Made by a program: the position numbers and the translations under genes. A stretch of DNA of 64,000 bases, from positions 88,292 to 152,291 of the forward strand of contig CAZYCL010000004.1 in NCBI GenBank assembly GCA_964645795.1, in the 5' to 3' direction. Positions 3,206 to 62,789 of this stretch are shown here, piece by piece. The DNA comes from an uncultured Planctomycetales bacterium (lineage in GTDB: Bacteria; Omnitrophota; Gorgyraeia; Gygaellales; Profunditerraquicolaceae). Position 1 is the stretch's first letter. Each line of letters starts with the position of its first letter. A model generated the notes under the pieces. It was not told the DNA's origin and did no database searches. It saw only the letters and a list, made by a program, of their open reading frames with translations.

Positions 3206-3312
3206 GGTTTGCCTTCTTCGCACTTCATGATAGATTTTCCCGCCAAAAATTTCGCTTCGTACGAATTAAAGGGAGGATTGTTCTGGAAAAGGCCATTCTT
3301 ACCATAGCGGGC

Positions 3313-5517
3313 ATGCATTGCGCTTCCTGCGCCGTTAATATCGAACGGGTGTTAAAAAATACTCCGGGCATTGAAACTGCGGCGGTAAACTTCGCGCTTG
3401 AGAAGGCCTATATCAAGTTTGACCCGCAGGCAATAACGCTCGCGGGCATAAAGAAAAAGATCGAGAATGCCGGGTATCTGGCGGTATTTGCGTATAGGCA
3501 CGATGCCGGCGATCCCCTTGACGCCGAAAGCCTCCTGCAGTCCAGAGAAATATCTTCATTAAAGTCAAAGTTCATCTCCTCGTTTTTGCTTTCCCTGCCC
3601 CTGGCTTTTATGGCTTTATCGGAAAGCTTCAACATCCGCCTTCCCGCCTTCTTTTCTCATAATGCCATACTGGCGCAATTCGCCCTGGCCAGCGCGGTCA
3701 TGCTTTTAGGCCACCAGTTCTTTATCCGCGGACTGGTCTCGGTGTTAAAGACAAGACTGGCGAACATGGATACCCTTATCAGCCTGGGCGTAGGCTCTGC
3801 CTATCTTTACAGCCTTATAGTCTCATTGCTTATCTGGTCCGGCTCAAGAGACAAGGGCCACCTCTATTATGACAGCGCCGCTTTTCTTATCAGTTTTATC
3901 CTCCTGGGCAAGTTTTTAGAGTCGGTGGCCCGCGGTAAAGCATCCGAGGCGATAAAAAAGCTTATTGATCTAAGGCCTAAGACCGCCCTGGTTATACGTC
4001 AGGGCAAGGAGGAAGAGATAGCGGTTAGTGATGTGGTAGCCGGGGATATCATAGTGGTCAAGCCCGGGCAAAGGATACCTGTCGACGGAGTGATCCTTGA
4101 AGGGCATTCCCGGGTGGATGAGTCGATGATCACCGGGGAGAGCATGCCGGTGGAAAAGCTCATCGGTCATGAGGTTATAGGCGCCACTATCAATAAGACC
4201 GGATCTTTTAAATTTAAGGCCGGGAAAGTAGGCAAAGATACGGTGCTTGCCCAGATCATAAAGCTGGTACAGGAGGCGCAGGGGTCAAAGGCGGCGATCC
4301 AGGAGATCGCCGATAAGGTCTCGGCGTATTTCGTGCCTTCGGTGCTGGTAATAGGGATAATTACTTTTTACGTATGGTTTTTGTCCGGCAAGGGCATTGC
4401 CTTTGCCCTGGACAACTTTATTTCGGTTTTGATCATCGCCTGCCCGTGCGCTTTGGGGCTGGCAACCCCCACTGCGGTTATCGTAGGTACGGCAGTTGCC
4501 GCGCGTAACGGCATCCTGATAAAGAATGCGCGCAGCCTGGAGCTGGCCCATAAGATACGTTCGGTGGTATTTGATAAGACCGGGACCCTGACGGAGGGCA
4601 AGCCCGTGGTCACCGACGTCATCGCGCTCCCCGGTCACGACCGCAAGGCGCTCTTGAAGTATGCAGCCATAGCCGAAAAGCGTTCGCAGCACCCTTTGGC
4701 AGAAGCGGTAGTGGCCGCGGCTAAAGAAGAAGGGCTGGATATCGAAGAGCCGGACGCATTTAATTCTCTCACCGCCAAAGGGGTGATCGCCCGTTTCAAA
4801 GGGGACATAATCCTTTTGGGTAACCGCGTGCTTTTCTCGGAAAGAAAAGTCGATATTGCGCCCATCCAGGATGAGCTGAAGAACTTGGAGTTACAGGGAA
4901 AGACTACGGTCGCGGTGTCTTTTAAAAATGAACTGCTGGGGGCGATCGCCTGCAGGGACGTGCTTAAAAAACAGGCTAAGAGGGCGGTAGATGTTCTTAA
5001 GAAATCCGCAAGGCAAGTATCTATGATCACCGGAGATAATTTCTCTACAGCCGCAGTCATAGCCAAAGAGGCCGGGATAACCGAAGTTTATGCCCAGCTT
5101 CTCCCGCAGGACAAGGTTGCCCAGATCAAGAAGCTGCAGGGTATGGGGCTGGAGGTAGCTATGGTAGGGGACGGGATCAATGATGCCCCGGCCCTGGCTG
5201 CCGCGGACATCGGTATTGCCATAGGCGCAGGTACCGATGTGGCGCTGGAGTCCGCAGACATTATCCTGATGAAAGATGACCCCATGGATGTTGCGGTGGC
5301 CCTGGACCTGTCGCGTTACTGCATGAAGAAGATAAAGCAGAATCTTTTTTGGGCCTTTGTCTATAATTTGACCGCTATTCCCCTGGCCGCAGGCTTGCTC
5401 TATCCCTTTACGGGCTTTCTTCTCAACCCCGTTATTGCCGCCGCGGCCATGGCTTTCAGTTCGGTAAGCGTAGTGACCAACTCGCTTTTTATGTATGGGT
5501 ACAGAAAAAATACTTGA
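3313..5517 (+). CDS. copA: copper-translocating P-type ATPase (CopA-like) with N-terminal HMA domain
   Basis: GMHCASC metal-binding motif, CPC transmembrane motif ([13 protein letters not shown]), DKTGTLT phosphorylation site, [10 protein letters not shown] hinge. The HMA domain continues in frame upstream of the first ATG, so a non-ATG start (ATT 3277 or CTG 3283, after SD AAAGGGAGGA) is possible. Confidence 0.85.
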
Positions 5518-7201: not shown

Positions 7202-8404
7202 ATGAAGACGATCAAAGAGATAAATGAGAAGATAAAGAAAGGCCAGGCAGTGGTGGTGACTGCCGAAGAGATCATTGAGCTCGTAGAGAAAAAGGGCGCC
7301 AGGAAAGCCGCCCAGGAAGTCGACGTGGTCACTACCGGCACGTTCGGACCGATGTGTTCTTCGGGGGCATACTTCAATATCGGCCACTCCAAGCCCAGGA
7401 TAAAGCTGGGTGGCGGGGTTTGCAAGTTGAACGATGTCCCTGCCTACTGCGGTTTTGCGGCCGCGGACATTTACCTGGGGGCCACAGCCATACCGGATGA
7501 TGACCCGCGCAACAAAGTCTTTCCCGGCGAGTTTAAATACGGCGGCGGCCATGTCATCCAGGAGCTGGTAGAGGGAAAAGAGATCAGGCTTGAGGCCGCA
7601 ACCTATGGGACAGACTGTTACCCGCGTAAAAAGCTGGCTACCTATATAGACCTGAAAGGTTTGAATGAGGCGGTCCTTTTTAATATCCGCAACTGTTATC
7701 AAAACTATAATGTCGCAGTCAACTTATCGGAAAAGATGATCTATACCTATATGGGAGCCCTAAAGCCGAACCTCGGCAATGCCAATTATTGCTCCGCCGG
7801 CCAACTTTCTCCTTTATTGAAGGACCCGTACTATAAGACCATCGGAGTAGGCTCCAGGATATTTCTCGCAGGAGGAGTCGGATATGTTGCCTGGCACGGC
7901 ACACAGCATAATCCTTCGGTTGCCAGAAAGGCAAACGGCGTTCCCCAGGCAGGTGCCGGGACTCTTGCAGTAATCGGCGACCTAAAACAAATGAAACCGG
8001 AGTGGCTTTTAGGCACAAGCATGCTTGGTTATGGCTCCAGCCTTATAGTCGGCATCGGAGTGCCCATACCCGTGCTTGACGAGGAGGTAGCCAGGTTTGC
8101 GGCAGCCAAAGACGAAGAGATCTATGCCCAGGTTATCGACTACAGCAATAATTACCCGAATTGTATCGCCGGTTCCCTGGCCGAGGTAAATTACGCCCAG
8201 CTTCGTTCGGGCAAGATCGTCGTTAACGGCAAGTCCGCGCCCACCGGAACGCTCTCCAGTTACTCCAAGGCACGCCAGATCTGTGAAGAGCTTAAGTCTT
8301 GGATCAAGAGAGGAGAGTTCTTGCTTACCGAACCGGTAGCGCCTCTGCCCGGGGCAGAATCAGGCTATACCTTCAGGATGTTGGATGAAAAACCGTTAAG
8401 TTAA
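7202..8404 (+). CDS. COG1900/DUF39 family protein (sulfide-dependent homocysteine biosynthesis protein)
   Basis: 400 aa. Family assignment is by similarity pattern and by the conserved adjacency to a NIL-domain ferredoxin, as in the MA1821/MA1822 system. Confidence 0.6.
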   Translation: MKTIKEINEKIKKGQAVVVTAEEIIELVEKKGARKAAQEVDVVTTGTFGPMCSSGAYFNIGHSKPRIKLGGGVCKLNDVPAYCGFAAADIYLGATAIPDDDPRNKVFPGEFKYGGGHVIQELVEGKEIRLEAATYGTDCYPRKKLATYIDLKGLNEAVLFNIRNCYQNYNVAVNLSEKMIYTYMGALKPNLGNANYCSAGQLSPLLKDPYYKTIGVGSRIFLAGGVGYVAWHGTQHNPSVARKANGVPQAGAGTLAVIGDLKQMKPEWLLGTSMLGYGSSLIVGIGVPIPVLDEEVARFAAAKDEEIYAQVIDYSNNYPNCIAGSLAEVNYAQLRSGKIVVNGKSAPTGTLSSYSKARQICEELKSWIKRGEFLLTEPVAPLPGAESGYTFRMLDEKPLS

Positions 8405-8419
8405 AGGGGGAGAGCCAAG

Positions 8420-8827
8420 ATGGTTTCCACGAGGATCGTTCTGCATTTTCCTTACCGGCTGGTAGACCAGCCCATAGTTTATAAGCTGGTCAAAGAGTAT
8501 GACCTAAGCTTCAATATCCTGAAGGCCTATGTTACTCCCCAGGAAGAGGGGCTGATGGTTTTGGAGCTTACGGGCGAGAAGGACAACTTTGACAAGGGGA
8601 TAGAGTATCTGCAGAGCTGCGGGGTAAGGATCCAGCCCTTAAGCCAGGATGTCATCCGCAACCAGGCCAAATGTACCGATTGCGGCGTCTGCGTCCCCAT
8701 ATGTCCGGCAGAGGCATTGGTGGTCGATCCCAAATCCAAAAAAGTACTTTTCTACGATAATAAGTGCATCGCTTGCGAGCTCTGTGTCAAGATCTGTCCC
8801 ACCCGGGCCATGGAAGTCAGATTTTAG
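8420..8827 (+). CDS. NIL-domain protein fused to 2x[4Fe-4S] ferredoxin (partner of COG1900)
   Basis: N-terminal NIL-like domain (LSFNILKAYVTPQEEGLMVLELTG) followed by two CxxCxxCxxxCP motifs (CTDCGVCVPICP, CIACELCVKICP). Confidence 0.75.
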   Translation: MVSTRIVLHFPYRLVDQPIVYKLVKEYDLSFNILKAYVTPQEEGLMVLELTGEKDNFDKGIEYLQSCGVRIQPLSQDVIRNQAKCTDCGVCVPICPAEALVVDPKSKKVLFYDNKCIACELCVKICPTRAMEVRF

Positions 8828-8829
8828 TA

Positions 8830-9639
8830 ATGAAGGCCGCCGTCAGAAAACTAGCCAAGCTTGAGCGTATAATCAAGGGGTGCGGTTCCTGCGTGGTCGC
8901 TTATTCCGGAGGCCTGGACAGCAGTTTTCTTCTCCACGTCGCCAGCCGCCTGCTGGCTGCCCGTAGCGTCTTGGCAGTAACAGCCGACTCCGAACTTTAC
9001 CCCTCCAAAGAGCTGGAGTTCGCAAAATCAGTATGCGGCAAGCTCGGCATCAGGCAGAAGGTAATAAGAACAAGGCAGCTGCAAAACAAGGCTTTTATCA
9101 AAAATAGCCCCCAGCGCTGTTATATATGCAAAAAAGGGCTTTTGAAAGAATGCTGGAAGATCGCCAGGGCCAAGCGCCTAAAATACGTCTTTGATGCCGC
9201 CAATATTTCCGATAGGGCCGATTTTCGCCCCGGAGAAAAGGCAAAGAAAGAGCTTAGGGTCCGCTCTCCTCTGGTCGAGGCCCGGATAAATAAAGACGAG
9301 ATACGTTATCTTAGCCGCAGGCTAGGCCTTGCGACCTGGGATAAACCTGCACTGGCCTGCCTTGCCTCCAGGATACCTTATGGCAGACAGATAACTCATG
9401 CGGCGCTGTCACGGATAGGCAAGGCCGAGGATTATTTGCTCCGGCAAGGCTTCAGCCAGGCAAGGGCCAGGGACTATGGAGACATCTGCAGGATCGAAGT
9501 GCCAGTAAATAAATTAAAACAGCTGTTAAGAAAGAAAAACGCGGTGGTAAAGACCCTTAAGAAAGCAGGATATAAATATGTTACGGCGGATCTGGAAGGC
9601 TACCGCCAAGGCAGCCTGAATGAGGCGTTTAAAAAATGA
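8830..9639 (+). CDS. PP-loop ATP pyrophosphatase family protein (LarE-like / TIGR00268-type sulfur-transferase ATPase)
   Basis: SGGLDSS PP-loop motif near the N-terminus. Start reassigned to ATG 8830, which follows the NIL-Fd stop; the six-frame ORF begins at 8764 inside the upstream gene. Confidence 0.7.
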   Translation: MKAAVRKLAKLERIIKGCGSCVVAYSGGLDSSFLLHVASRLLAARSVLAVTADSELYPSKELEFAKSVCGKLGIRQKVIRTRQLQNKAFIKNSPQRCYICKKGLLKECWKIARAKRLKYVFDAANISDRADFRPGEKAKKELRVRSPLVEARINKDEIRYLSRRLGLATWDKPALACLASRIPYGRQITHAALSRIGKAEDYLLRQGFSQARARDYGDICRIEVPVNKLKQLLRKKNAVVKTLKKAGYKYVTADLEGYRQGSLNEAFKK

Positions 9640-10799
9640 AAAAGATATATTTTGATTACGCCGCCACCACCCCAACAGACCCGGAAGTCACAAGGGCCAT
9701 GGAGCCTTACTACTTTGAGAAGTTCGGCAACGCCTCCAGCTTCCACGGGTTCGGGCAAGAGGCAAAAAAAGGCGTGGAAGACGCACGGGAGGCGCTGGCT
9801 TCATTTCTGGGGGCCAGGCCCGAAGAGATAATCTTTACTTGCGGCGGGACAGAATCGAATAATTTCGTAATTCAGGGGGTTAGCGCGGCAATGAAAGAGA
9901 AGGGCAACCATATCATAACCAGCGCTATCGAACACCATTCTGTCGGCGAGCCCTGCCAGCACTTGGAGAAGAAGGGTTTTAAAGTGACTTATGTCGGCGT
10001 GGATAAGTACGGAGTGGTCTCTGCGCAGGAGATAAAACAAGCGATAACCGATAAGACCATACTTATAAGCGTAATGCACGCCAATAATGAGATCGGTTCG
10101 ATACAACCTATTGCCCAGATCGGCCGGATAGCCAGGGAAAAGGGGGTGTATTTCCATACTGATGCGGTGCAGACCGTCGGCCATATCCCTACCGACGTAA
10201 ACGAGCTTAATGTGGATTTTTTGTCGCTTTCAGCGCATAAATTCTACGGCCCCAAGGGCGTCGGCGCCTTATATGTAAGAAAGGGGAGTAAAATCCATCC
10301 GTATTTGCGCGGAGGGGGCCAGGAGAGAGGCAGGCGCGCATCAACGCTTAACAGCCCCGGTATCGTAGGCCTGGGTAAGGCTATCCAGATATGCGCCAAA
10401 GAAATGGAAAAGGAAGCCGGTTTTCAGTCCGGCCTTCGCGACAAGATCATCTTTGAGGTAAAAAAGCGCATCCCCGAGGTGTATCTTAACGGCCATCCGA
10501 CCGAAAGGCTGCCCAATAACGTAAATTTTTCGGTCAAATACATAGAAGGGGAGTCGATGCTTTTACGCCTTGATATGCAGGGTATCGCTGCTTCCAGTGG
10601 TTCGGCCTGCACTTCGGCTACGCTTGAGCCTTCGCACGTGCTCTTGGCAACGGGTCTGGAGCATGATCTGGCCCACGGCTCATTAAGGGTGACTCTGGGC
10701 AGGTGGAGCTGCCGGGAAGAAGTAGATTATTTTCTGGAGTGTTTTCCCGGGATAGTGGACAAGCTGCGCCGGATGTCGCCGCTTTACGAAGAAAAATAA
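9636..10799 (+). CDS. iscS: cysteine desulfurase (NifS/IscS family, class-V aminotransferase)
   Basis: PLP-lysine SLSAHKFYGPKGVGALY, active-site Cys loop SSGSACTS, 387 aa. ATGA-overlaps the upstream stop. Confidence 0.9.
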   Translation: MKKIYFDYAATTPTDPEVTRAMEPYYFEKFGNASSFHGFGQEAKKGVEDAREALASFLGARPEEIIFTCGGTESNNFVIQGVSAAMKEKGNHIITSAIEHHSVGEPCQHLEKKGFKVTYVGVDKYGVVSAQEIKQAITDKTILISVMHANNEIGSIQPIAQIGRIAREKGVYFHTDAVQTVGHIPTDVNELNVDFLSLSAHKFYGPKGVGALYVRKGSKIHPYLRGGGQERGRRASTLNSPGIVGLGKAIQICAKEMEKEAGFQSGLRDKIIFEVKKRIPEVYLNGHPTERLPNNVNFSVKYIEGESMLLRLDMQGIAASSGSACTSATLEPSHVLLATGLEHDLAHGSLRVTLGRWSCREEVDYFLECFPGIVDKLRRMSPLYEEK

Positions 10800-10901
10800 A
10801 CCGCATGCCGTGGCGCTCAAACATCCTCGCCGTGCCGAGATCGCCCCGCCTATGGCGGGGCCTTAGTCTATGTGAAAGGGCACTTTTAAATTTAGACCAA
10901 C

Positions 10902-11864
10902 ATGAACGAGAAGATAATTGAGTTTTTGAAGAAAAAAGAAGGGTATGTATCCGGGGACCAGATCGCCCACAGGCTCGGGATCAGCCGGCAGGCGCTCTGG
11001 AAGCATATTCAGGAGCTCAAAGATTTAGGTTACGATATTGTAGCCGTGCCGCATTTGGGTTACCGCCTGGACGCCGCTCCTGACCGGCTTTTTGATTTTG
11101 AAATAAAGAGCGCTCTCAATACCAGGTTCGTCGGCAGGCAAATACACTATTTTGAGAACGCTGCTTCCACGATGGAGATCGCCACAAGGCTTGCCCTTGG
11201 AGGCTGTCCGGAAGGGACGCTGGTCATAGCCGAAAGCCAGACTAGAGGCAAGGGGAGGATGGGCAGGAGTTGGTTTTCGCCCAGACATAAAGGGATTTAT
11301 GCATCCCTGATATTAAGGCCCAATACGCTGCCATCCCAGGTATCGGTCCTGACCTTATTAGCCGCGGTCAGTATCGTGGAGGCGCTAAACGAATTCTGCG
11401 GCGTCCCTTCAAAGATCAAGTGGCCAAACGATGTGGTCCTGGAGGGCAGGAAATTAGCCGGGATACTTACCGAGCTTAACGCCGAGATGGACAGGGTCAA
11501 CTTCGTGGTCCTTGGGATAGGCATTAATGTAAATAACGATAAAAAATCCCTGATAAGCGGGGCGGCATCCCTCAAGAGTTTCCTTGGCCATAGCCTAAAT
11601 TTGAACAGGGTGGGGCTCCTGCAGGCGATACTGCGCAGGATCGAAGACAATTATTCCTCTTTTCAAAAAGGCCATCTGCAGGGCATCCTGGAAAAATGGA
11701 AGCAGATGTCGGTAACGCTGGGCACAAGGGTCAAGGTCTATTGCCAGAATGAGCAGGTGGAGGGAGAGGCGGTGGATATAGATTCTGACGGGGGGCTCCT
11801 GGTAAGGCGCGACAGCGGGATCACCGAAAAGATAACCGCGGGCGATGTGGTGGCCTGCCGTTAA
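10902..11864 (+). CDS. birA: bifunctional biotin-[acetyl-CoA-carboxylase] ligase / repressor BirA
   Basis: N-terminal HTH (VSGDQIAHRLGISRQALWKHIQELKDLGY), catalytic QTRGKGRMGRSWFSP (GRGRxGR) motif, and a C-terminal SH3-like domain. Confidence 0.9.
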   Translation: MNEKIIEFLKKKEGYVSGDQIAHRLGISRQALWKHIQELKDLGYDIVAVPHLGYRLDAAPDRLFDFEIKSALNTRFVGRQIHYFENAASTMEIATRLALGGCPEGTLVIAESQTRGKGRMGRSWFSPRHKGIYASLILRPNTLPSQVSVLTLLAAVSIVEALNEFCGVPSKIKWPNDVVLEGRKLAGILTELNAEMDRVNFVVLGIGINVNNDKKSLISGAASLKSFLGHSLNLNRVGLLQAILRRIEDNYSSFQKGHLQGILEKWKQMSVTLGTRVKVYCQNEQVEGEAVDIDSDGGLLVRRDSGITEKITAGDVVACR

Positions 11865-11896
11865 CCATAGAATGTAAACTAATAATAATATCCGGG

Positions 11897-11937
11897 TTGA
11901 CATTTATATCGGCGCCTATTATAATAGGCGCCGATAT
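11897..11937 (+). promoter_or_regulatory. perfect consensus sigma70 promoter overlapped by a perfect 32-bp palindrome (operator-like; could also act as the birA terminator hairpin)
   Basis: TTGACA at 11897-11902, a 17-nt spacer and TATAAT at 11920-11925. ATATCGGCGCCTATTATAATAGGCGCCGATAT (11906-11937) is an exact inverted repeat centred on the -10 element, followed by TTTT and then the receptor gene ATG at 11941. Confidence 0.6.
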
Positions 11938-11940
11938 TTT

Positions 11941-13779
11941 ATGCGCTACTTATTTACCATGGGCATCCTGCTGTATTTATCGGTATTTATCCTTGCCTTT
12001 GCGGCTGTGGGCCTGGGGGCAGAAGGCGGCGATCTGGGCAGGATCGTGGTCAGGTCCCGAGCCATTGACGCAGAGGATGCCATTGGTCACTGTGCAATCG
12101 CCAAAGAATCGATAACCGGCCGGCAGCTCGAACAGGCCCATATCGGCTCGCTACAGGAAGCCCTTGATTATGTAAGCGGAGTTGATCTACGCGTGCGCTC
12201 TAGCCGCGGCATACAGGCGGATCTGTCCATGCGCGGCTCTACCTACGAGCAGGTAGCCGTGCTTATAGACGGGGTAAGGGTCGGGGACCCCCAAACCGGC
12301 CATCATAATCTGGACATACCGCTCACCGTAGCCGACATCGAGCGCATAGACGTGATCAAGGAGCCCGCCTCTTCGCTTTATGGACCGGGTGCCTTTGCCG
12401 GGGCCGTCAATATCATAACTAAGAAATCCGGCAAAAGCTCTTTGAGGGCGGAGTCAGTTTTCGGGGAGCATGCCCTCCGAGAGCAGGGCATATATTGCGA
12501 TCTGAACGCCGCCGGCTCTTTCTTTAAAAGCTCGTTTGAAAATAAATCTGCCAAGGCCGCGCGCCCCGATACCGATTTCGATTATCATACCGGGACAGTA
12601 TCGTTTAGCAGGCAGGAAGGCAGTTTTGATATCGATTCCTTCTTTGGCTACCAGGAAAAGGATTTTGGCGCAGGCAGCTTTTACTCCAACCTCTTCCCCG
12701 AAGAAGAGGAGCATACCCGGACCCTCTTTACCCGGACAGCCGTTAACTACGATCTTAAGCCCGGCGTATTCAAAAACAACCTCTATTTCAGGAGGCATTG
12801 GGATAAATTTATCCTGCGCCGCAGCATGCCCACAGGGGCCAATTACCACACCACTTATGTCTACGGCCTGGACTCCCAACTGCGCCTGCCCTTTGATTAT
12901 GGAGAGCTTATCCTGGGGGCAGAAGAGCATGAGGAGCGCATAGTTTCCAATAATCTGGGCAGGCATTCGAGGTTTAACCAGGGATTGGCTATCGGCCTTA
13001 TCCCAGATCTGGGCAAGGATTGGCGGGCGGCCGTTCGTTTCAGGGATGATTATCTGCAGGGTTGGGGCTGGAATGAATCTTTTAACTGCGGCCTGGGTTA
13101 TAGGCTCATCGATGGATTATGGCTGCGGTCTTCTGCCGGGCGCGCCTGGCGTATCCCCAGCTTTACCGAGCTTTATTACAATGATGCCGCCAACAAAGGC
13201 AACCCCAGCCTCGGGGCAGAGACCAGCGACAGCTTCTCGCTGGGGTTGGAGTTTGGGCGCGGGCCCTTCAAAATGTCCCTGGACCGCTACCTTCGACGGG
13301 CAAGGGATCTTATTGACTGGACGCGGGCTGATGCTTCCGGGCCCTGGCAGGCCTCGAATATCGGCAAGGCGGATTTTCAAGGGCTGGAGCTGGGCTTGTC
13401 ATGGACCGGGGCGTTTGAAGCCGGGCTGATCAGAGTAAATAAAATCCAGTTTTTCTACAATAACCTCGATACGCAAAATAAGCAGCAGGGTTTTTCCTCC
13501 AAGTATGCCCTTGATACGCTAAAACACCAGCTGGTCCTTAAAAGCAGCGCCGGCCTTTGCGGTATTGACTTCAACCTCCATCTTTCCTACAATCAGAGGT
13601 GTTTGGGGGAGAGCTACTTTGTGGGCAGCCTTTCCGTCTCGCGCCGCTTCAAATGCAAAGCTGTTCATTTTGAGCCGTTCGTCAAGGCAGACAATTTTAC
13701 CGATACAGAATATTCCGAGATCGGGGGAGTTATCCAGCCAGGCAGATGGCTTAAGTCGGGGGTAAAGTTCGAGTGGTGA
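11941..13779 (+). CDS. TonB-dependent outer-membrane receptor (small, ~610 aa)
   Basis: Signal peptide MRYLFTMGILLYLSVFILAFAA and a plug domain (DAIGHCAIAKESITGRQLEQ...GVDLRVRSSRG, IDGVRVGDPQTGHHNLDIPL, IERIDVIKEPASSLYGPGAFAGAVNIITK). A terminal Phe/Trp beta-barrel closing motif (KFEW) is present. Confidence 0.85.
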   Translation: MRYLFTMGILLYLSVFILAFAAVGLGAEGGDLGRIVVRSRAIDAEDAIGHCAIAKESITGRQLEQAHIGSLQEALDYVSGVDLRVRSSRGIQADLSMRGSTYEQVAVLIDGVRVGDPQTGHHNLDIPLTVADIERIDVIKEPASSLYGPGAFAGAVNIITKKSGKSSLRAESVFGEHALREQGIYCDLNAAGSFFKSSFENKSAKAARPDTDFDYHTGTVSFSRQEGSFDIDSFFGYQEKDFGAGSFYSNLFPEEEEHTRTLFTRTAVNYDLKPGVFKNNLYFRRHWDKFILRRSMPTGANYHTTYVYGLDSQLRLPFDYGELILGAEEHEERIVSNNLGRHSRFNQGLAIGLIPDLGKDWRAAVRFRDDYLQGWGWNESFNCGLGYRLIDGLWLRSSAGRAWRIPSFTELYYNDAANKGNPSLGAETSDSFSLGLEFGRGPFKMSLDRYLRRARDLIDWTRADASGPWQASNIGKADFQGLELGLSWTGAFEAGLIRVNKIQFFYNNLDTQNKQQGFSSKYALDTLKHQLVLKSSAGLCGIDFNLHLSYNQRCLGESYFVGSLSVSRRFKCKAVHFEPFVKADNFTDTEYSEIGGVIQPGRWLKSGVKFEW

Positions 13780-13794
13780 AGTTGAGCGGTAAAT

Positions 13795-15687
13795 ATGGAA
13801 AAATATTTTGAACTTCCCAGGATCAATCCGCAATACGTGCGCTCTAAGGATTACTTTTTTCTTTTTGAGACCTCTCGATGCAGCCGCCAGGATTTCATGA
13901 GCTATATTTTTAGTGATCCCGTAGAGGTCATAGTGGCGAGCGCTCCCCAGGATATAGAAGAGGCATTCGCCCGGCTCCAGAGGCGCTGTGAAAGGTTTTA
14001 TCTCTGCGGCTGGATTGCCTATGAGCTGGGGTATATTTTTGAGCGCGCGTCATTTTCTCATTCAGGCGTCTCTGGAAAACCCCTGGTCTGTTTTTGCGTT
14101 TTTAAAGATGCCCTAAGCTTTGACCATAGGAATGGCGAGGTTTGCGCAAATACCAAAGGCCTGTTTTCGCGCTCGTCCCGGCGCGCCGATTTTAGTGTGC
14201 GCCGGTTAAGGTTTGACATCGGCGAAGAAGATTACCGCAGAAAGGTCTCCAGGATCAAAGATTACATAAGAAAAGGCGATGCTTACCAGGTCAACTTCAC
14301 CAGCCGCTTTAACTTTAGATTTGCCGGCCAGCCTCTGGCTTTATACGAATCCCTAAGGGCCAGCCAAAGCGTTGCCTTCGGGGCTTTTTGTAAACTCAAG
14401 GACAGCTACGTTATATCTTTATCTCCGGAGTTGTTCTTCAGGATCGAAGGCAACCGCATCTATTCCAGGCCGATGAAAGGGACTATCTCGCGCGGCCCTA
14501 GCTGCGAGCTAGACGCTATCCAGGCAAAAAAACTTTTCTCCAGCGCCAAAGACCGCGCGGAAAATCTGATGATCACGGACCTGGTGCGTAACGACCTGGG
14601 CAGGATCTGCCGCACCGGCAGCGTAAAGACGGAGAATCTTTTTGATATCGAAAAGTACAACACGGTTTTTCAAATGACCTCGACCGTCAAAGGCAAGCTC
14701 AAGAGCAGCGTTTCCTATTACGACATATTCAAAAACATCTTTCCCGGCGGTTCGGTGACCGGCGCGCCGAAAATACGCTCGATGCAGATCATCAGGGAGC
14801 TGGAGAGAGGCAGGAGAGGCATTTACTGCGGGGCGCTGGGGATGATCTTTCCCGGCAAGAAGGCGGTGTTCAATCTTCCTATCCGCACGCTGGTATTATC
14901 AAAAGGCAGGGGGCATATGGGGGCAGGAAGCGGTGTGGTCATTGATTCCCGGGCAGAGGATGAGTTTCGCGAGTGCCTGCTTAAAGGCAGGTTCCTTAGC
15001 CACAGGTGCAAGGAGTTCGATCTTATTGAAACCATGCTTTGGGACAGAGAATACCGGCTTCTTGCCCTGCATCTAAGACGGCTTGCTTCTTCCGCGGCCT
15101 ACTTCGGATTTAACTTTGACCGCGGATACATTTTGTCGCGCCTGCGCAATGCCGAAGCAGGATTTAGCCGGGCACGCAAACATAGGGTCAGGCTTATTCT
15201 CGACAGGTCCGGCAGGGTTGAAATCACGGCCTCTGCCATAGGCGTCCAGGATCCTGCGCCGGCAAAGAAGGCAGCCGTATCCAGGCACAGGACAGATCCG
15301 CAGGATCCATTCCTTTACCATAAAACAACCAACCGTTTGTTATACGAACGCGAGCACGCCGTTTATAAGAAGAAAGGATTTTACGACGCGGTATTCCTTA
15401 ATAAAAGAAATGAATTTACAGAAGGCGCCATTTCCAATATAATTGTGGAAATAGGCGGCAATCTTTATACGCCGCCAGTTAGTTGCGGTTGCCTTCCCGG
15501 AGTATTCCGGCAGCATCTGCTGAGCCAGGGAAAACTGAAAGAAAGAATCATTAAACCTCAGGACCTCAATAAGGCAGACAGGGTGTTTTTGGCTAATTCC
15601 GTCAGAGGCCTGGTCGAGGTTAAAATCGATGTTCATCCATACCGTCCTCTTCGAGATAAAACCAAAAGAAGTCGCCGCTTACCGTAA
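13795..15687 (+). CDS. pabBC: fused aminodeoxychorismate synthase component I (PabB) / aminodeoxychorismate lyase (PabC, class-IV aminotransferase)
   Basis: N-terminal chorismate-binding domain (GDAYQVNFTSRF, NLMITDLVRNDLGRIC, GAPKIRSMQIIRELERGRRGIYCGALG). C-terminal class-IV aminotransferase fold (FDLIETMLWD...GFYDAVFLNKRNEFTEGAISNI). Confidence 0.85.
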   Translation: MEKYFELPRINPQYVRSKDYFFLFETSRCSRQDFMSYIFSDPVEVIVASAPQDIEEAFARLQRRCERFYLCGWIAYELGYIFERASFSHSGVSGKPLVCFCVFKDALSFDHRNGEVCANTKGLFSRSSRRADFSVRRLRFDIGEEDYRRKVSRIKDYIRKGDAYQVNFTSRFNFRFAGQPLALYESLRASQSVAFGAFCKLKDSYVISLSPELFFRIEGNRIYSRPMKGTISRGPSCELDAIQAKKLFSSAKDRAENLMITDLVRNDLGRICRTGSVKTENLFDIEKYNTVFQMTSTVKGKLKSSVSYYDIFKNIFPGGSVTGAPKIRSMQIIRELERGRRGIYCGALGMIFPGKKAVFNLPIRTLVLSKGRGHMGAGSGVVIDSRAEDEFRECLLKGRFLSHRCKEFDLIETMLWDREYRLLALHLRRLASSAAYFGFNFDRGYILSRLRNAEAGFSRARKHRVRLILDRSGRVEITASAIGVQDPAPAKKAAVSRHRTDPQDPFLYHKTTNRLLYEREHAVYKKKGFYDAVFLNKRNEFTEGAISNIIVEIGGNLYTPPVSCGCLPGVFRQHLLSQGKLKERIIKPQDLNKADRVFLANSVRGLVEVKIDVHPYRPLRDKTKRSRRLP

Positions 15688-15934
15688 AGACAGCCTGATG
15701 TGGGCGCGCTACGCCAAAAAAGCCAAAGGGTTTGTAGCGTATTTTACCATGAAGCGCTTCGGCCATAAGGGCCAGTATGCCTCAGTCTATGAGTGGCGCT
15801 CCAAGGCCGACCACGACCGCTTCATGAGCAAATTCCACGATTGGCTCGTCGCAAAATCCAGGGCCAAGGTGAAAGTCCTAGGCTACTATAATCTCAAGAA
15901 CATCGACCGCCTGCGCAACGGTTTCATCCAATAA
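15629..15934 (+). CDS. ABM (antibiotic-biosynthesis-monooxygenase / Dabb-like) domain protein
   Basis: 101 aa with a ferredoxin-like ABM pattern (MFIHTVLFEIKPKEV...YASVYEWRSKADHDRFMSK). Overlaps the pabBC 3' end by 59 nt. Confidence 0.5.
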   Translation: MFIHTVLFEIKPKEVAAYRKDSLMWARYAKKAKGFVAYFTMKRFGHKGQYASVYEWRSKADHDRFMSKFHDWLVAKSRAKVKVLGYYNLKNIDRLRNGFIQ

Positions 15935-15943
15935 CGAATAGCA

Positions 15944-16058
15944 GGGACGGTTCCCAAGCCAATTTAGAACTGTCCCCTGAGTTAGGCACCCAAGCCTATC
16001 GGATGGCTTGGTGCCCGCTCGTGCGGGACAGTTTTAGATTGTCCCAAGAACCGTCCCT
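15944..16058. repeat. ~115-nt multi-tier imperfect palindromic element (intergenic structured RNA/DNA element)
   Basis: Outer perfect 11-bp arms AGGGACGGTTC (15944-15954) and GAACCGTCCCT (16048-16058). Middle arms AATTTAGAACTGTCCC and GGGACAGTTTTAGATT pair at 14 of 16. Inner arms GGCACCCAAGCC and GGCTTGGTGCC close an 8-nt loop. Confidence 0.5.
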
Positions 16059-16067
16059 AATTTACAT

Positions 16068-17132
16068 ATGAGAAAACGTGTAGTTGTAGCGATGAGTGGA
16101 GGGGTGGACTCTTCGGTAGCCGCGGCGCTTCTTCAAAAAGAAGGCCATGAAGTCATCGGGATGACCATGTGCTTTGGCGTCGCCTCATCCGATGAAAAAC
16201 CCGGCTGTTGCGGCATGCAGGCAATAGAAGACGCCCGGCGCATCTGTCACAGGCTTGGCATCAGGCATTATGTAGTGGACCTGCAGAAGGTTTTTAAAGA
16301 AAAGGTGATAGGCCAGTTCTTGCAGGAGTATGCCGCCGGACGCACGCCCAACCCTTGCATAAGGTGCAACCAATTCGTCAAGTTCGATGCGCTCATGAAG
16401 AAGGCCCTGGCCCTGGATGCGGATTATCTGGCCACCGGCCATTACGCTCGGATCACAAAGCAGGCCGGTATCTTCCGGCTTAAAAAGGGTGTCGACAAGT
16501 TTAAGGACCAGTCGTATTTTCTTTACCGGTTTACCCAAAAACAACTGCGGCATACGCTTTTTCCGGTAGGCATTTACACCAAGGCTGAAGTCAGGAGCCT
16601 GGCAAGGGAGTTTGAGCTGCCGGTAGCAGATAAAAGGGAGAGCCAGGAGATATGTTTTTTAGGGGATGAGGGTTTAAAAGATTTTTTGCGCCGCCGGTTA
16701 ACGGCCGGGGTTTCGGCCGGTCATATCAAGGATAAATACGGCAGGCATCTGGGCAGGCACCAAGGCATAGCTTTTTATACCGTGGGCCAGCGCGAGGGCC
16801 TGGGCATTGCCGCAGGCTATCCGGTTTATATCAGCTCTATCAATGCCGCATCCAACCTGATAACCATAGGTCCCCGCAAAGACTGCCATGCCAGGGAGTT
16901 TCTGGTGAGGCAAGCCAATTTTATAACGGGCAGGCCAAAAAAGAAGGTTGTCCTCAAAGTCAAGATACGTTATAATCACAAGGAGTCGGCGGCAGAAGTC
17001 TTTGCCGTTGATAGCTGCGTCAAGGTCATATTCGGGAAACCTCAATTCGCCATAACTGCGGGGCAATCCGCGGTATTTTATGACCGGGATACAGTGGTCG
17101 GGGGAGGGATAATTAACAGGGTGATCAAATGA
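16068..17132 (+). CDS. mnmA: tRNA-specific 2-thiouridylase MnmA
   Basis: PP-loop AMSGGVDSSVAA, catalytic Cys region (NPCIRCNQFVKF), 354 aa. Confidence 0.9.
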   Translation: MRKRVVVAMSGGVDSSVAAALLQKEGHEVIGMTMCFGVASSDEKPGCCGMQAIEDARRICHRLGIRHYVVDLQKVFKEKVIGQFLQEYAAGRTPNPCIRCNQFVKFDALMKKALALDADYLATGHYARITKQAGIFRLKKGVDKFKDQSYFLYRFTQKQLRHTLFPVGIYTKAEVRSLAREFELPVADKRESQEICFLGDEGLKDFLRRRLTAGVSAGHIKDKYGRHLGRHQGIAFYTVGQREGLGIAAGYPVYISSINAASNLITIGPRKDCHAREFLVRQANFITGRPKKKVVLKVKIRYNHKESAAEVFAVDSCVKVIFGKPQFAITAGQSAVFYDRDTVVGGGIINRVIK

Positions 17133-18049
17133 CAAAGACCAAAAGCGATGAGCTGGAAAAAAAGATAGCGGAGCTTAAGAAGAAGCGCGACGCGGTTATC
17201 CTGGCGCATAATTACCAGCTGCCAGAAGTCCAGGATATCGCGGATTACCGCGGGGATTCCCTGGAGCTGTCCCGTATCGCCGCCCGAACGGAGGCCAAGG
17301 TCATTGTATTTTGCGGGGTGCACTTCATGGCCGAGACCGCATCCATCCTCTGTCCGGATAAAAAAGTTATTATGCCGGATAAGCTCTCCGGCTGCCCCAT
17401 GGCAAATATGATCACCGCGCTAGATCTGCGCAGGCTCAAAAAAGAACACCCCGAAGCCGTGGCCGTCGGCTACGTAAATACCTCCGCAGAAGTAAAAGCG
17501 GAGCTTGATTACTGCTGCACTTCTACCAACGCAGTAGCAGTGGTCAACGCCCTTAAAGACAAGAAAGAGATAATCTTCGTGCCGGACAAGTACCTGGCGG
17601 ATTTTACGGCTAAAAAGACCGGCCGCAAGCTGATCGTCTGGGACGGATTCTGCCCGACGCACATAAAGATACTTCCCGAAGACATCAAGCATGAGAAAAA
17701 GTTCCATCCTTTCGCCAAAGTAATGGTGCACCCGGAGTGCATCCCCGCGGTGCTCGACTTGGCGGATGCGGTGCTATCCACCAGCCAAATGGCCAAGTTC
17801 ACCAAGGACAGCGACGCGCACGAGTTTATCGTAGGGACCGAAGTGGGGATTATCTATCGCCTGAAACAGGACAATCCCAGGAAAGAGTTTTATCCGGCCT
17901 CCGAAAGGGCGGTCTGCCCCAATATGAAGCGAACCACGCAGGAGAAGGTGCTCTGGGCACTTGAGGAGCTCAAAGACGAAGTAAGGGTCTCTGATGATAT
18001 ACGCCAGCGTGCCCGCAAGGCCATTGACCGGATGATGGAGATCGTCTAA
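17129..18049 (+). CDS. nadA: quinolinate synthase NadA
   Basis: 306 aa with ILAHNYQ, VFCGVHFMAETA and PECIPAV motifs typical of NadA. ATGA overlap with mnmA. Confidence 0.9.
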   Translation: MTKTKSDELEKKIAELKKKRDAVILAHNYQLPEVQDIADYRGDSLELSRIAARTEAKVIVFCGVHFMAETASILCPDKKVIMPDKLSGCPMANMITALDLRRLKKEHPEAVAVGYVNTSAEVKAELDYCCTSTNAVAVVNALKDKKEIIFVPDKYLADFTAKKTGRKLIVWDGFCPTHIKILPEDIKHEKKFHPFAKVMVHPECIPAVLDLADAVLSTSQMAKFTKDSDAHEFIVGTEVGIIYRLKQDNPRKEFYPASERAVCPNMKRTTQEKVLWALEELKDEVRVSDDIRQRARKAIDRMMEIV

Positions 18050-18051
18050 GG

Positions 18052-18684
18052 GTGAACATCCCGATTGTCTTTGAAGATGATTGGATCATGGTCCTGGATA
18101 AACCCGCCGGGCTGCTGGTCATACCCACCCCACGCAAAGAAGCCCGCACCCTTACCAGCATATTAAACGATCATGCCGCATCACAAAATAAGAGCTACCG
18201 TCTTCATCCCTGCCATCGCCTTGACCGCGAGACTTCCGGTTTGATCATCTATGCCAAGGGCAAGGGGGCGCAGCAGAAAGTAATGGAGGAGTTCAAAAAC
18301 AGGCGCGTGGAAAAAAAATATATTGCCCTGGTGCAGGGGAGGCTTTCTCCAAGACAGGGGCAGATAAGCTCGCCTATCGAAGGAAAGAACGCCCTGACCG
18401 CCTACTCAACCGTTAAGGAGAAGGAGAAGTTGAGCGTAGTGGAGTTGTATGCCGTTACAGGCCGCACCAACCAGCTGCGCATACACCTGCAGAGGGCCGG
18501 CCATCCACTCGTCGGCGAGGCCAAGTTTGCCCGCCGCAGAGAATCTTCCGTGAAAGCAAAAAGGGCCTGCTTGCACGCAAAGTCCCTGTCGTTAGTCCAC
18601 CCTTTTACCGGCAAGAAGATCTTTCTTGATAGCGAGCTGCCCGCAGACATGAAGGCGCTATTGGGCGAGGAGGGCATAAGATGA
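18052..18684 (+). CDS. RluA-family pseudouridine synthase
   Basis: Catalytic HRLDRETSGLIIYAK motif, 210 aa, GTG start. Confidence 0.85.
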   Translation: MNIPIVFEDDWIMVLDKPAGLLVIPTPRKEARTLTSILNDHAASQNKSYRLHPCHRLDRETSGLIIYAKGKGAQQKVMEEFKNRRVEKKYIALVQGRLSPRQGQISSPIEGKNALTAYSTVKEKEKLSVVELYAVTGRTNQLRIHLQRAGHPLVGEAKFARRRESSVKAKRACLHAKSLSLVHPFTGKKIFLDSELPADMKALLGEEGIR

Positions 18685-20507
18685 GGCCAACTCCCAGGCA
18701 ATGGCTCGTGTCTGTGCTGCTTGCCTTTTCCGCGGCCCTGCTCTGGCTTAAGCTTGAATACCCGGCTTACATATTCATGGATTTTTCCGTTGGCAGGGAA
18801 AAGGCATTAGCGCTTTCCCGGGATTATCTAAGGTCTTTGGGGGTCAAAGACCGGGATTACTCCAGCGCCGTTGTCTTCGGCGCGGATGACTGGGCAGACA
18901 GGTATCTGCAAAGGTCGGTCGGCCTTGATGCGCAGGAAAAGTTTTTGCGCAGCCACGGCTTTGAAATATTCTACTGGCAGGTCAGGTTCTTCCGGCCGCA
19001 GGAAAAAGAGGAGTATCAGCTTTACATAAGCCCCGCTACAGGCAAGGTCAACAGGTTCAGGCATTTTATCGAAGATACCGAGCGCCGAGTGGATTTAAAA
19101 AAAGACCAGGCGCGGGCCCTGGCCTGGGATTTCCTTCGCCGCAGCTTCGGGTTAGACCCCGGGGATTACGATTTCCATCAGGAGAATGTCCAGCGCCACG
19201 ACAACAGGACCGACTACAGGTTTTCATGGGAGAAAAAAGGCGTCTACGTGCCTTGGGGCAAAGACAAAGGGGGAGCCAAGCTCTTGGCAGAGGCCACCGT
19301 CTCGGGCAGGGAGATCCGGGAGTTTCGCAAGGGCAGCCTCGAGATCCCCGAGAAGTTCCACCGCTACATCAACGACCAGTTGATGCTGGGGGAAGTCCTT
19401 TACGGGCTGGGGTTCGTGGTGATAGTAGCGATGCTGGGCTGGGCCGTGCTTATTTTGGTTGGCCGCAAGGACGAGCTGGCCATACGCTCAAGCTCTAGAT
19501 GCTATTACCTGTTTGGGGCGGCTTTTGTCATCATTTATCTGGCTGCGCAGGCAAATAACTTCCAGTCCGCGGTCATGTTCTACCCCACAAGCGTAAAACC
19601 CTCCTCTTACCTGGCTTACTATTTACTCAATGTATTTATGAACGCCGCTTTCATGGCCGCTTCCTTTATAATATTTGCCGGGGTAGGAGAGTTTATTCTT
19701 AGTCTCAGGCCTTCGGCAGACCGTTACGCGAGCATGCTCCATTTTATAAGGTCCAGCTTCCTAAACCGCAGCCTCGCTAATTCCATAATGCTGGGTTACC
19801 TCTTTTTCATCATGATAGCCGGGATACAGGCAGCGGTTTACTGGGCGGGACAGGAGTTCTGCGGGGTCTGGAAGGAATGGGAACGCTTAAGCGAATTTTC
19901 CAGCGCCTACATCCCGTTTTTAAGCGTTTTTGCCCTGGGTTTTACTGCCGCGACCAGCGAAGAGCTTAGTTACCGGCTTTTCGGCATAAACTTCGCCACA
20001 AGATACCTGCGTAAACGCTGGCTGGCGGTGATATTGGTCTCGGTGATCTGGGGGCTGGAGCATTCAAATTATCCGGTTTTCCCGGTGTGGTTCAGGATAA
20101 TCGAGATATCGCTGGTCGGGATATTCCTGGGCCTGGTGTATCTGAGGTTCGGCCTGATCGCCGTTTTGGCAGCGCACTACCTTTTTGACGTGTTCCTGTC
20201 TACCGCCGCGCATCTGTTCGGGCGCAGCCACCCCTATCTTTTTATAAGCGCCCTGGCCGCCCTGCTTATCCCGCTTGTTTTGGCCGCCGCCGCTTTTATG
20301 CTCAACAGGACGGAAAAAGAAAGAGAGTGCGGCCAGATGTTAAGCCCGGCCCAGAAGTACAATCTCCGGATACTCGAGGTCTTTATCGCCGACAGGAAGG
20401 GCCGCGGCTCGGATGCAGGGCAGCTGCGCAAGGAGCTCTTAAGCAATAATTGGGATCCCCTGCTCGTAGATTTTGCCCTCAAGAAGGATGCGGAGGCCGG
20501 ACAATGA
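18681..20507 (+). CDS. CPBP-family (CAAX-protease-like) intramembrane metalloprotease with large N-terminal extracytoplasmic domain
   Basis: TM-rich C-terminal half carries the EELSYRLFG (EExxxR) and WGLEHS (FxxxH) CPBP motifs. The N-terminal ~250 aa is a soluble domain that follows a signal-anchor. Confidence 0.7.
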   Translation: MRPTPRQWLVSVLLAFSAALLWLKLEYPAYIFMDFSVGREKALALSRDYLRSLGVKDRDYSSAVVFGADDWADRYLQRSVGLDAQEKFLRSHGFEIFYWQVRFFRPQEKEEYQLYISPATGKVNRFRHFIEDTERRVDLKKDQARALAWDFLRRSFGLDPGDYDFHQENVQRHDNRTDYRFSWEKKGVYVPWGKDKGGAKLLAEATVSGREIREFRKGSLEIPEKFHRYINDQLMLGEVLYGLGFVVIVAMLGWAVLILVGRKDELAIRSSSRCYYLFGAAFVIIYLAAQANNFQSAVMFYPTSVKPSSYLAYYLLNVFMNAAFMAASFIIFAGVGEFILSLRPSADRYASMLHFIRSSFLNRSLANSIMLGYLFFIMIAGIQAAVYWAGQEFCGVWKEWERLSEFSSAYIPFLSVFALGFTAATSEELSYRLFGINFATRYLRKRWLAVILVSVIWGLEHSNYPVFPVWFRIIEISLVGIFLGLVYLRFGLIAVLAAHYLFDVFLSTAAHLFGRSHPYLFISALAALLIPLVLAAAAFMLNRTEKERECGQMLSPAQKYNLRILEVFIADRKGRGSDAGQLRKELLSNNWDPLLVDFALKKDAEAGQ

Positions 20508-21247
20508 TCAAATACGCATTATTGGGAGTAGCTCAGGGGCTTACGGAGTTCTTGCCGGTGAGCAGCTCCGGGCACCTGGTTGTCATGCAGCAGCTTCTGG
20601 GTATGCGCGGGGAGGAGGTCGCCGTCTCCCTTATCCTGCATTTGGGCACGATACTTTCCTTGCTGGTTTTTTTCTTTAAGGATATCCTTGCGGCGCTGCG
20701 CCAGCGCAGGACGCTGCTTCTTATCCTTCTGGTGACGCTGGTTACCGGTGCGGTAGGGTTAGCGGGTAAAGATTTTTTCGAAAGCCTGTTCTCTTCGGCC
20801 CGTTATGTGGCGGCGGCGTGGCTGGTGACGGGGGCGGTGATGATTTTGACCAGGCGGGCAATGGAGGGCAAAAGAACTGTGCTGACAGCCAAAGATGCCC
20901 TGGTGCTGGGCTTAAGCCAGGCAGCGGCGATAATCCCGAGCCTGTCGCGCTCAGGACTGACCATCGCCTCGCTGTTATTTAGAAAGATCGATAAGGAAGC
21001 CGCCTTTAAGTTTTCCTTCCTTGCCGGCATGCCGGCGATAATGGGCGCGGCAATACTTGAGGCTAAAGAGATCGACCTGGCCCTGCGGTTGAACCCCCTG
21101 AATCTTGCCGCGGGGTTTATTTTTAGCTTTTTAAGCGGCCTGCTTGCCCTATGCCTGTTGCGCCAGGCGATAAATAAAGCACGGTTGCATTATTTCGGAT
21201 ATTATTGTATAGTAGTTGCGATAGCAGCTTTTCTCTTCGTAAGATAA
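20504..21247 (+). CDS. uppP: undecaprenyl-diphosphatase UppP (BacA)
   Basis: GLTEFLPVSSSGHL and SRSGLTI motifs. Start set at ATG 20504 (ATGA overlap with the upstream stop) rather than the six-frame ORF start at 20450. Confidence 0.85.
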   Translation: MIKYALLGVAQGLTEFLPVSSSGHLVVMQQLLGMRGEEVAVSLILHLGTILSLLVFFFKDILAALRQRRTLLLILLVTLVTGAVGLAGKDFFESLFSSARYVAAAWLVTGAVMILTRRAMEGKRTVLTAKDALVLGLSQAAAIIPSLSRSGLTIASLLFRKIDKEAAFKFSFLAGMPAIMGAAILEAKEIDLALRLNPLNLAAGFIFSFLSGLLALCLLRQAINKARLHYFGYYCIVVAIAAFLFVR

Positions 21248-21248
21248 T

Positions 21249-22151: not shown

Positions 22152-22167
22152 CCCGCAAGAGGTAAAG

Positions 22168-22626: not shown

Positions 22627-22656
22627 CCCTTAAGTTTTTATTTGGGATTCATAGCG

Positions 22657-22686
22657 AGCCGCCTGATGGTCAAGGCGGCTTTTTTG
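22657..22686 (+). terminator. Rho-independent terminator
   Basis: AGCCGCCT-gatggtca-AGGCGGCT hairpin followed by TTTTTTGTT, immediately after the yqeY stop. Confidence 0.7.
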
Positions 22687-22709
22687 TTGGCCGGTGCAAG
22701 GAGCAAGTA

Positions 22710-25034: not shown

Positions 25035-25047
25035 TGTTATAACCCCA

Positions 25048-25076
25048 TTGACTTTGCCCTCTGGCTGGAGTAGAAT
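25048..25076 (+). promoter_or_regulatory. candidate sigma70 promoter (TTGACT-17 bp-TAGAAT)
   Basis: TTGACT at 25048-25053, a 17-nt spacer and TAGAAT at 25071-25076, upstream of the second TonB-dependent receptor. Confidence 0.4.
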
Positions 25077-25111
25077 TCCTATTATTGTCGCAGCAGCCGG
25101 CCGGGGAGGAT

Positions 25112-26953: not shown

Positions 26954-26980
26954 GGCTTAGCGTTTAATTACAGGAGCCGC

Positions 26981-62779: not shown

Positions 62780-62789
62780 GGTTTTTTGC

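Follow-up and report, generated by a model that had tools for sequence, protein, structure and literature searches.

A predicted BirA operator, a sigma-70 promoter and a putative birA terminator are nested upstream of a TonB-dependent receptor gene in an Omnitrophota genome

What is the role of a perfect 32-bp palindrome that is centred on the -10 hexamer of a consensus promoter? This question is raised by contig CAZYCL010000004.1 of assembly GCA_964645795.1, deposited as an uncultured Planctomycetales bacterium, of which we analysed a stretch of 64 kb (positions 88,292 to 152,291 of the forward strand; hereafter the window, numbered from its first base). Window-wide figures refer to this stretch and not to the genome beyond it. 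The host was placed in Candidatus Omnitrophota by the protein names of homologs. The palindrome, ATATCGGCGCCTATTATAATAGGCGCCGATAT (11906-11937, plus strand, 16-nt arms, centre between 11921 and 11922), is located in the 76-bp spacer between birA (10902-11864, plus strand) and the gene of a TonB-dependent receptor (11941-13779, plus strand), the ATG of which is reached after TTT on the 3' side of the palindrome. An earlier note, based on the letters of the sequence, had described an exact TTGACA-17-TATAAT promoter and an exact inverted repeat with 16-nt arms, both of which were confirmed by reading the sequence. It took the palindrome for the operator of a dimeric repressor, such as a metal-responsive regulator, with a terminator hairpin of birA as a secondary reading. 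Our analysis points to a different arrangement, to which we assign a probability of roughly 80%: the spacer would combine a BirA operator, a sigma-70 promoter and the terminator of birA, nested around the -10 hexamer, and would insulate a receptor gene that is controlled by BirA and biotin.

The birA gene encodes a protein of the bifunctional biotin-protein ligase/repressor type, with an N-terminal helix-turn-helix (HTH) domain followed by the ligase domains (Pfam HTH_11 at residues 3-55, BPL_LplA_LipB and BPL_C). The protein scored above the NCBIfam cutoff for birA_ligase and also matched the birA_repr_reg domain. For comparison, 80 loci were obtained by a protein-based scan of metagenome contigs, in which loci were picked by protein similarity and not by DNA motif. 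Operators were counted at 47 distinct ortholog loci with enough upstream sequence and receptors of at least 42% identity, and the hairpin and promoter were aligned over 30 distinct orthologous modules. Three receptor homologs of about 50% identity were found to share the gene order nifS-like, birA, receptor, together with a matching spacer design, and birA orthologs (55-67% identical) were directly upstream of most receptors of at least 42% identity.

Directly 5' of the palindrome, and starting 8 nt past the birA stop codon, is a predicted BirA operator, aTGTAAACt-N14-GGTTGACAt (11872-11903). Its core half-sites are TGTAAAC (11873-11879) and GTTGACA (11896-11902), the latter coinciding with the -35 hexamer, and its assignment is based on the published consensus, a position weight matrix (PWM) and conservation among orthologs. 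The BirA signal is given as TTGTAAACC-N14/15-GGTTTACAA in PMC545781, which cites the reconstruction of BirA regulons by Rodionov, Mironov and Gelfand (2002) and includes deltaproteobacterial sites such as aTGTcAACC-N14-GGTTgACAg. The window site agrees with this consensus at 12 of the 12 core positions and has the canonical spacing. It is also the single BirA box match in the window: by use of a PWM built from 41 orthologous sites, the box scored 32.9 bits and the runner-up among all other window positions -5. A box with at least 11 of the 12 core positions was detected within 330 nt upstream of the receptor at 41 of the 47 ortholog loci (about 0.1 such matches being expected by chance, by our own estimate), and a further four loci had a box that matched at 10 of 12 positions or that was located slightly beyond the search frame. 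Species-representative genomes were also scanned with the pattern TGTAAAC-N15-17-GTTKACA-N16-18-TATAAT, which was found at 120 or more loci. Among the matches listed, this box/-35/-10 design was positioned 5' of birA, bioB-like genes and genes for BioY-like membrane proteins of about 185 residues in Clostridia and other groups (these calls being made by size and sequence), and 5' of TonB-dependent receptor genes in Omnitrophota-labelled genomes. At one Omnitrophota locus (L133), birA is followed by the same module, again with the -10 hexamer enclosed in a hairpin, and then by bioB, the product of which has Radical_SAM and BATS domains. Taken together, these results suggest that 11872-11903 is likely a BirA/bioO operator of the ordinary kind. 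The earlier proposal of a repressor-controlled promoter thus looks sound in outline and mistaken in its site and its regulator, the BirA box being 5' of the palindrome.

Spacers of the relatives were not of uniform length. At one locus (L011, positions 4760-4930), an insertion of about 170 nt with inverted repeats of its own separates the birA stop codon from the BirA box; the module downstream of it is intact, and the insertion may be a small mobile or repeat element. Comparable gaps of about 170-190 nt between birA stop codon and box were observed at three other loci (L021, L061 and L027).

The predicted promoter of the receptor gene is composed of TTGACA (11897-11902, plus strand) and TATAAT (11920-11925, plus strand) at a spacing of 17 nt, a 12/12 match to the sigma-70 consensus that was unique within the scanned region 8000-27000. 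TTGACA was invariant in the 30 aligned modules (GTTGACA was found in 29/30), and TATAAT was nearly invariant. The perfect -35 hexamer is doubly constrained, by promoter and by operator, because the GTTGACA half-site contains it. The -10 hexamer forms the loop of the hairpin and its first closing pairs; its retention as sequence among orthologs, in spite of its place in a hairpin, supports the promoter that the earlier note had described.

This conservation bears on the explanation that the palindrome is nothing but the terminator of birA, with a promoter match that is fortuitous or inactive and a receptor gene that is transcribed by read-through or from elsewhere. AT-rich loops and T-runs do readily resemble -10 elements. 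By contrast, terminator loops are otherwise free to vary and would be expected to drift, whereas TATAAT was retained in them, always 16-18 nt 3' of the invariant TTGACA, and the -35/-10 pair was also retained at loci that lack the hairpin. The identical design, moreover, drives known BirA targets in other phyla, and by an analytic estimate a 12/12 match with a spacing of 16-18 nt is expected only about 0.01-0.02 times per 64 kb on both strands. We consider an inactive promoter to be highly improbable and the least probable of the alternatives weighed here; the evidence supports a predicted sigma-70 promoter that drives the receptor gene.

Read as RNA from the plus strand, the palindrome has the fold of an intrinsic terminator of birA (stem 11906-11919/11924-11937, loop 11920-11923), an assignment based on folding and covariation. 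It forms a 14-bp stem with seven G-C pairs and a 4-nt loop (UAUA), and folding energies of -23.2 kcal/mol were calculated for the stem-loop alone and -29.7 kcal/mol for a 101-nt context (z = -4.0). The hairpin is co-directional with birA, is situated 42 nt past its stop codon and is followed by UUU(A)U. The T-run, or U-tract (11937-11940, plus strand), is TTTT within GATATTTTAT in the window and comprises 5-7 T in relatives, with a mean T content of 6.0 in the 8 nt after the stem (30 loci). The earlier note had given the hairpin an 11-bp stem, which is too short, and a TTTT tail, which is correct.

Among the relatives, the arm sequences were found to vary by locus (CCCGGCAC.., CCCGAAAC.., CCTGAAGG.., GATCTGCTACCC.., TCGGCACTT..) and yet always to pair. 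RNAalifold recovered the hairpin, with double changes at 9 of 10 pairs. Paired cells amounted to 87% compared to 70% in column shuffles (none of 500 shuffles being as high), a percentage that is somewhat inflated because one set of sequences yielded both the alignment and the consensus structure. Double-change cells numbered 65 versus 21 in the shuffles, and the covariation score was 0.574 compared to at most 0.18 when the partners were slid. Strand asymmetry was detected as well: G·U pairs outnumbered A·C pairs by 27 to 6 (p = 3e-4; 30 loci), and in 26 of 30 loci a more stable fold was obtained for the plus strand than for its reverse complement (p = 3e-5). A purely artefactual pattern is at odds with this asymmetry and with the slid controls. 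Covariation, G·U strand bias and U-tract together fit the signature of an intrinsic terminator acting on the plus strand and not that of a DNA operator recognized by its sequence, and it is the secondary reading of the earlier note that these data bear out.

We weighed against these data the alternative that the palindrome functions, solely or additionally, as the operator at which a second dimeric repressor (of Fur/Zur/Nur or Rrf2 type) sits on the -10 hexamer and controls the receptor gene. In its favour are the perfect 16-nt arms centred on the -10 hexamer, an Rrf2 gene about 6 kb upstream, and the precedent of a LexA site at the yobI terminator palindrome (bioRxiv 10.64898/2026.08.19.745784). 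The arm sequence, however, drifts across the 30 modules while pairing is kept, and G·U wobbles would be meaningless for a site in DNA. The half-sites proposed in the earlier note are not conserved among orthologs, and no second copy of the 22-mer core was found in the 64-kb window with up to three mismatches. The promoter, furthermore, appears already to be occupied by the canonical operator of a different regulator, BirA. An operator function of the palindrome is thus unlikely in our judgement, and a metal-type operator is not supported by the window and the orthologs.

The perfection of the palindrome itself is less exceptional among the relatives than in the window. Besides ATATCGGCGCCTATTATAATAGGCGCCGATAT, the window has no perfect palindrome whose arms reach 8 nt, and the longest arms in 30 shuffles were 7-9 nt; among all fetched loci, the core of ATATCGGCGCCTATTATAATAGGCGCCGATAT was matched only in contigs of the same species. 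Perfect or near-perfect palindromes were also observed in relatives, such as a perfect one of 26 bp in L028, and the 32-bp palindrome of the window appears from these comparisons to be the extreme of a continuum. It is perfect in part because ATTATAAT, which it contains, is palindromic in its own right. The palindrome was not listed by automated searches for terminators or inverted repeats; its presence was confirmed by folding and with a separate script.

An assembly artefact can be dismissed, since five of five independent public assemblies carry the palindrome, with identical sequence up to a contig break inside it. The five corresponding Logan short-read contigs with an identical birA (L001-L005) end at a common base, window position 11935 (...ATAATAGGCGCCGAT). 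At k = 31, two adjacent k-mers of a perfect 32-bp palindrome are mutually reverse-complementary and the assembly graph therefore breaks; we take these contig ends for the kind of break that palindromes typically cause in k-mer graph assemblers. No contig encoding exactly this receptor protein was found on public record by exact-protein look-up.

We also examined where the receptor mRNA may start. Sigma-70 start sites are 6-9 nt downstream of the -10 hexamer, and this geometry predicts a start at 11931-11934 (plus strand), inside the 3' arm of the hairpin. The predicted leader is about 7-10 nt, AU-rich and free of a Shine-Dalgarno sequence, and the absence of such a sequence before 11941 agrees with the earlier note. 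A Shine-Dalgarno core was found in only 13 of 39 window genes compared to a background of 16%, and genes that lack it are thus common here. The ATG follows the end of the -10 hexamer after 15 nt in the window and most often after 17-19 nt in orthologs. The near-leaderless start that had been proposed is consistent with the relatives: in many orthologs the ATG directly follows the T-run and opens a typical signal-peptide N-terminus, and in distant paralogs it is only 6-8 nt after the -10 hexamer, so that these genes look leaderless. Leaderless mRNAs elsewhere in this genome are hinted at by two further genes, that of a P-type ATPase at 3313 (TTGTTC-16-TACCAT, with the -10-like hexamer 7 nt before the ATG; 3278-3313) and the open reading frame (ORF) at 58763 (TATAAT 7 nt before the ATG; 58740-58763). 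In paralogs with birA upstream (L109, L111, L119 and L203), the 3' arm of the terminator and the T-run are inside the first ~10 receptor codons, such that the termination signal overlaps the coding sequence of the receptor signal peptide.

This proximity to the start codon raises the alternative that the hairpin acts mainly in another way, either as a translational mask on read-through RNA or as a DNA cruciform that tunes the promoter. Only 3 nt separate the hairpin from the ATG, in paralogs the 3' arm is within the first codons, and supercoiled DNA allows perfect palindromes with an AT centre to extrude. On the other hand, the U-tract is consistent across loci, and a GC-rich stem with a short loop is the geometry of intrinsic terminators; in relatives, stems that are imperfect or contain G·U wobbles speak against a cruciform, and masking would be additional to termination and no replacement for it. 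We regard either function as improbable for the main role of the hairpin, slightly more so than a second repressor and slightly less so than an inactive promoter.

Based on the nesting of operator, promoter and terminator, we propose the following scheme. When biotin is plentiful, holo-BirA, that is BirA bound to biotinyl-AMP, would bind the operator and occlude the receptor promoter. Transcripts of birA would contain the full hairpin, the stem of which closes around the -10 hexamer and the U-tract of which abuts the receptor ATG, and would stop at the T-run; in any transcripts that read through, the start region of the receptor would be masked. Receptor mRNA from its own promoter would lack the terminator, because its predicted start is inside the 3' arm, and without the 5' arm it would be unable to terminate. 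The receptor gene would in this way be insulated from birA transcription, and its expression set by BirA and biotin alone.

The receptor (612 residues) has a signal peptide and the Plug and barrel domains of Pfam, and belongs to a family whose genes are preceded by BirA boxes. It was below all NCBIfam equivalog cutoffs (134.6 bits compared to 599.7 for the BtuB equivalog) and had weak matches to CirA and BtuB in the PDB. A riboswitch or known leader RNA, including the cobalamin riboswitch, was rejected, as Rfam gave no match over 11600-12200. Receptors that share 33-38% identity with the window receptor over their full length are also preceded by the box, and many of their genes are directly followed by bioY. 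With receptors encoded beside bioY, the full-length identity of the window receptor is 33%, and the Pfam BioY domain was confirmed in the gene after the receptor at three loci, which have the order box, leaderless-looking receptor gene, bioY (L145, 4913-7453; L065, 2460-5055; L084, about 400-2907). The same order was observed in L067, L072, L075, L076, L085, L091 and L181. These loci, on Omnitrophota-labelled contigs and on unlabelled metagenome contigs, are candidate clusters for the uptake of biotin across two membranes. Published surveys describe biotin synthesis in Omnitrophota as partial or non-universal. From these surveys and from the regulation and gene context of the receptors we infer that the BirA-box family may import biotin or a related compound. 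We know of no characterised TonB-dependent transporter for biotin or one of its vitamers or precursors, and a literature search of incomplete coverage found no paper on BirA-regulated or biotin-specific TonB receptors, which is weak evidence of novelty.

Apart from the inflated pairing percentage, several observations weigh against the scheme. With only TTTT, the U-tract of the window is short and may bring about no more than partial termination. In one subclade, a co-directional tRNA methyltransferase-like ORF ends at the box and there is no hairpin around the -10 hexamer, although another covarying hairpin is present shortly before the ATG; a hairpin around the -10 hexamer is therefore not obligatory under upstream transcription, and part of the hairpin pattern may reflect clade history. 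With regard to the substrate, no bioY or recognised biotin-synthesis gene was detected in the window or beside the close orthologs, and the assignment depends on regulation and on more distant members of the family. The idea that the hairpin is confined to loci with a co-directional upstream gene was dropped, being contradicted by the tRNA methyltransferase-like subclade. A gene of the Aminotran_3 family (1790-3205) was considered as bioA and rejected, its score falling below the cutoff. The joint proposition, that phylum-wide BirA-repressed TonB transporters for biotin, a vitamer or a precursor, sometimes upstream of bioY, are made from leaderless or near-leaderless mRNAs that start inside a terminator hairpin, with biotin status alone setting their expression, is in our estimate evenly poised between true and false.

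In a receptor subclade without upstream birA and without a hairpin around the -10 hexamer (L043, L044, L047 and L048), a different covarying inverted repeat was found in the short leader, about 20-60 nt after the -10 hexamer and just before the ATG. Its outer arms (CTTTACA..TGTAAAG, CTTGACA..TGTCAAG and GTTTACA..TGTAAAC) resemble BirA half-sites in everted orientation, and its inner stem is TGACA/TGTCA or TAACA/TGTTA. A role as second operator or as hairpin of the leader is conceivable for this repeat.

A second receptor gene in the window (ATG at 25112) is arranged differently. Consistent with the earlier note, it was found to have a promoter (25048-25076, a 10/12 match) and no palindrome; it has neither a BirA box nor a short leader, its leader carrying GGAGG. 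Its product is similar to the first receptor at the level of the plug only (79 bits), and, because of this limited similarity and the missing box, the box-bearing receptors are considered one family apart from it. Given the normal Shine-Dalgarno leader and the absence of a BirA box, the second receptor would belong to a separate uptake system. In this region (25112-28600), its gene is followed by one for a NikA/Opp-type substrate-binding protein, and a hybrid histidine kinase gene precedes it.

Downstream of the first receptor gene, a pabB-pabC fusion (13795-15687, plus strand) starts 15 nt past the receptor stop codon, with no terminator between the two genes (13780-13795). This gene, for para-aminobenzoate synthesis, may be co-transcribed with the putatively BirA-controlled receptor gene in this genome only, as relatives have other genes in its place. 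Upstream of birA are larE-like and nifS-like genes, with which birA may be co-transcribed unless it has a promoter of its own; a gap of 102 nt (10800-10901), which separates the nifS-like gene from birA, contains a GC-rich hairpin, GCCCCGCC-TAT-GGCGGGGC, with no clear T-run. Other inverted repeats were observed in the window. An imperfect one with 34-nt arms that are 79% complementary and 48 nt apart (15943-16058) is located between a 101-aa ORF with no Pfam match and mnmA, and 9 nt separate its end from the mnmA ATG. Upstream of the ORF at 62970, several AT-rich inverted repeats are clustered (62772-62944), including 38-nt arms at 62839-62876/62907-62944 and a 27-nt palindrome at 62772-62817.

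The single elements of the spacer are ordinary; what may be new is their conserved nesting, together with a family of BirA-controlled TonB-dependent receptors as candidate biotin importers. If this reading is right, a palindrome that resembles an operator is reassigned to the common function of a terminator, and the combination of covariation, G·U strand bias and U-tract offers a way of telling terminator from operator without experiments. Known BirA targets are biotin synthesis genes and bioY. Control by BirA of a conserved receptor family in Omnitrophota would add candidate energised uptake of biotin across the outer membrane and would provide a clue to what these nanobacteria, most of them host-dependent, scavenge. 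The nested spacer would also represent a second register of promoter-terminator coupling, with the -10 hexamer in the terminator loop and the start inside the stem, and, for a compact genome, a simple means of insulating a regulated gene from the gene before it.

Compared to known systems, the locus is closest in its regulation to BirA/bioO. With E. coli bioO it shares the TGTAAAC(C)-N14-(G)GTTGACA inverted repeat at canonical spacing, an operator that overlaps the core promoter, and a cognate BirA with an N-terminal HTH. It differs in that the target is a TonB-dependent outer-membrane receptor, and not a biosynthesis gene or bioY, and in that the predicted operator is nested with the putative terminator of birA itself. 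Among vitamin transporters, BtuB-like proteins likewise have about 600 residues, a Plug and a 22-strand barrel, and an expression that is tied to a vitamin-sensing regulator, as is predicted here; by contrast to the cobalamin riboswitch of BtuB, the control predicted here is by the operator of a protein repressor. With leaderless and short-leader mRNAs the receptor gene has in common the lack of a Shine-Dalgarno sequence, and by its predicted start it is near-leaderless rather than leaderless.

The arrangement of the spacer is most similar to the promoter-coupled terminators described by Fletcher et al. 2026 (bioRxiv 10.64898/2026.08.19.745784), in which, as here, a terminator and the next tandem promoter are found within a few dozen bp. 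The predicted elements of our locus overlap completely and are thus within the limit of ≤35 bp that marks this class. The preferred register reported for promoter-coupled terminators has termination about 10 bp upstream of the start, the stem-loop on the -35 and the T-tract before the -10; by contrast, our locus has the -10 hexamer in the loop, the predicted start in the 3' arm and the T-tract downstream. In their LexA example, the site of the factor is the stem-loop, whereas here the predicted factor site is separate and upstream. In both cases the palindrome has a role in RNA structure, and DNA next to it or overlapping with it is used for initiation and the binding of a transcription factor, roles that are predicted for this locus.

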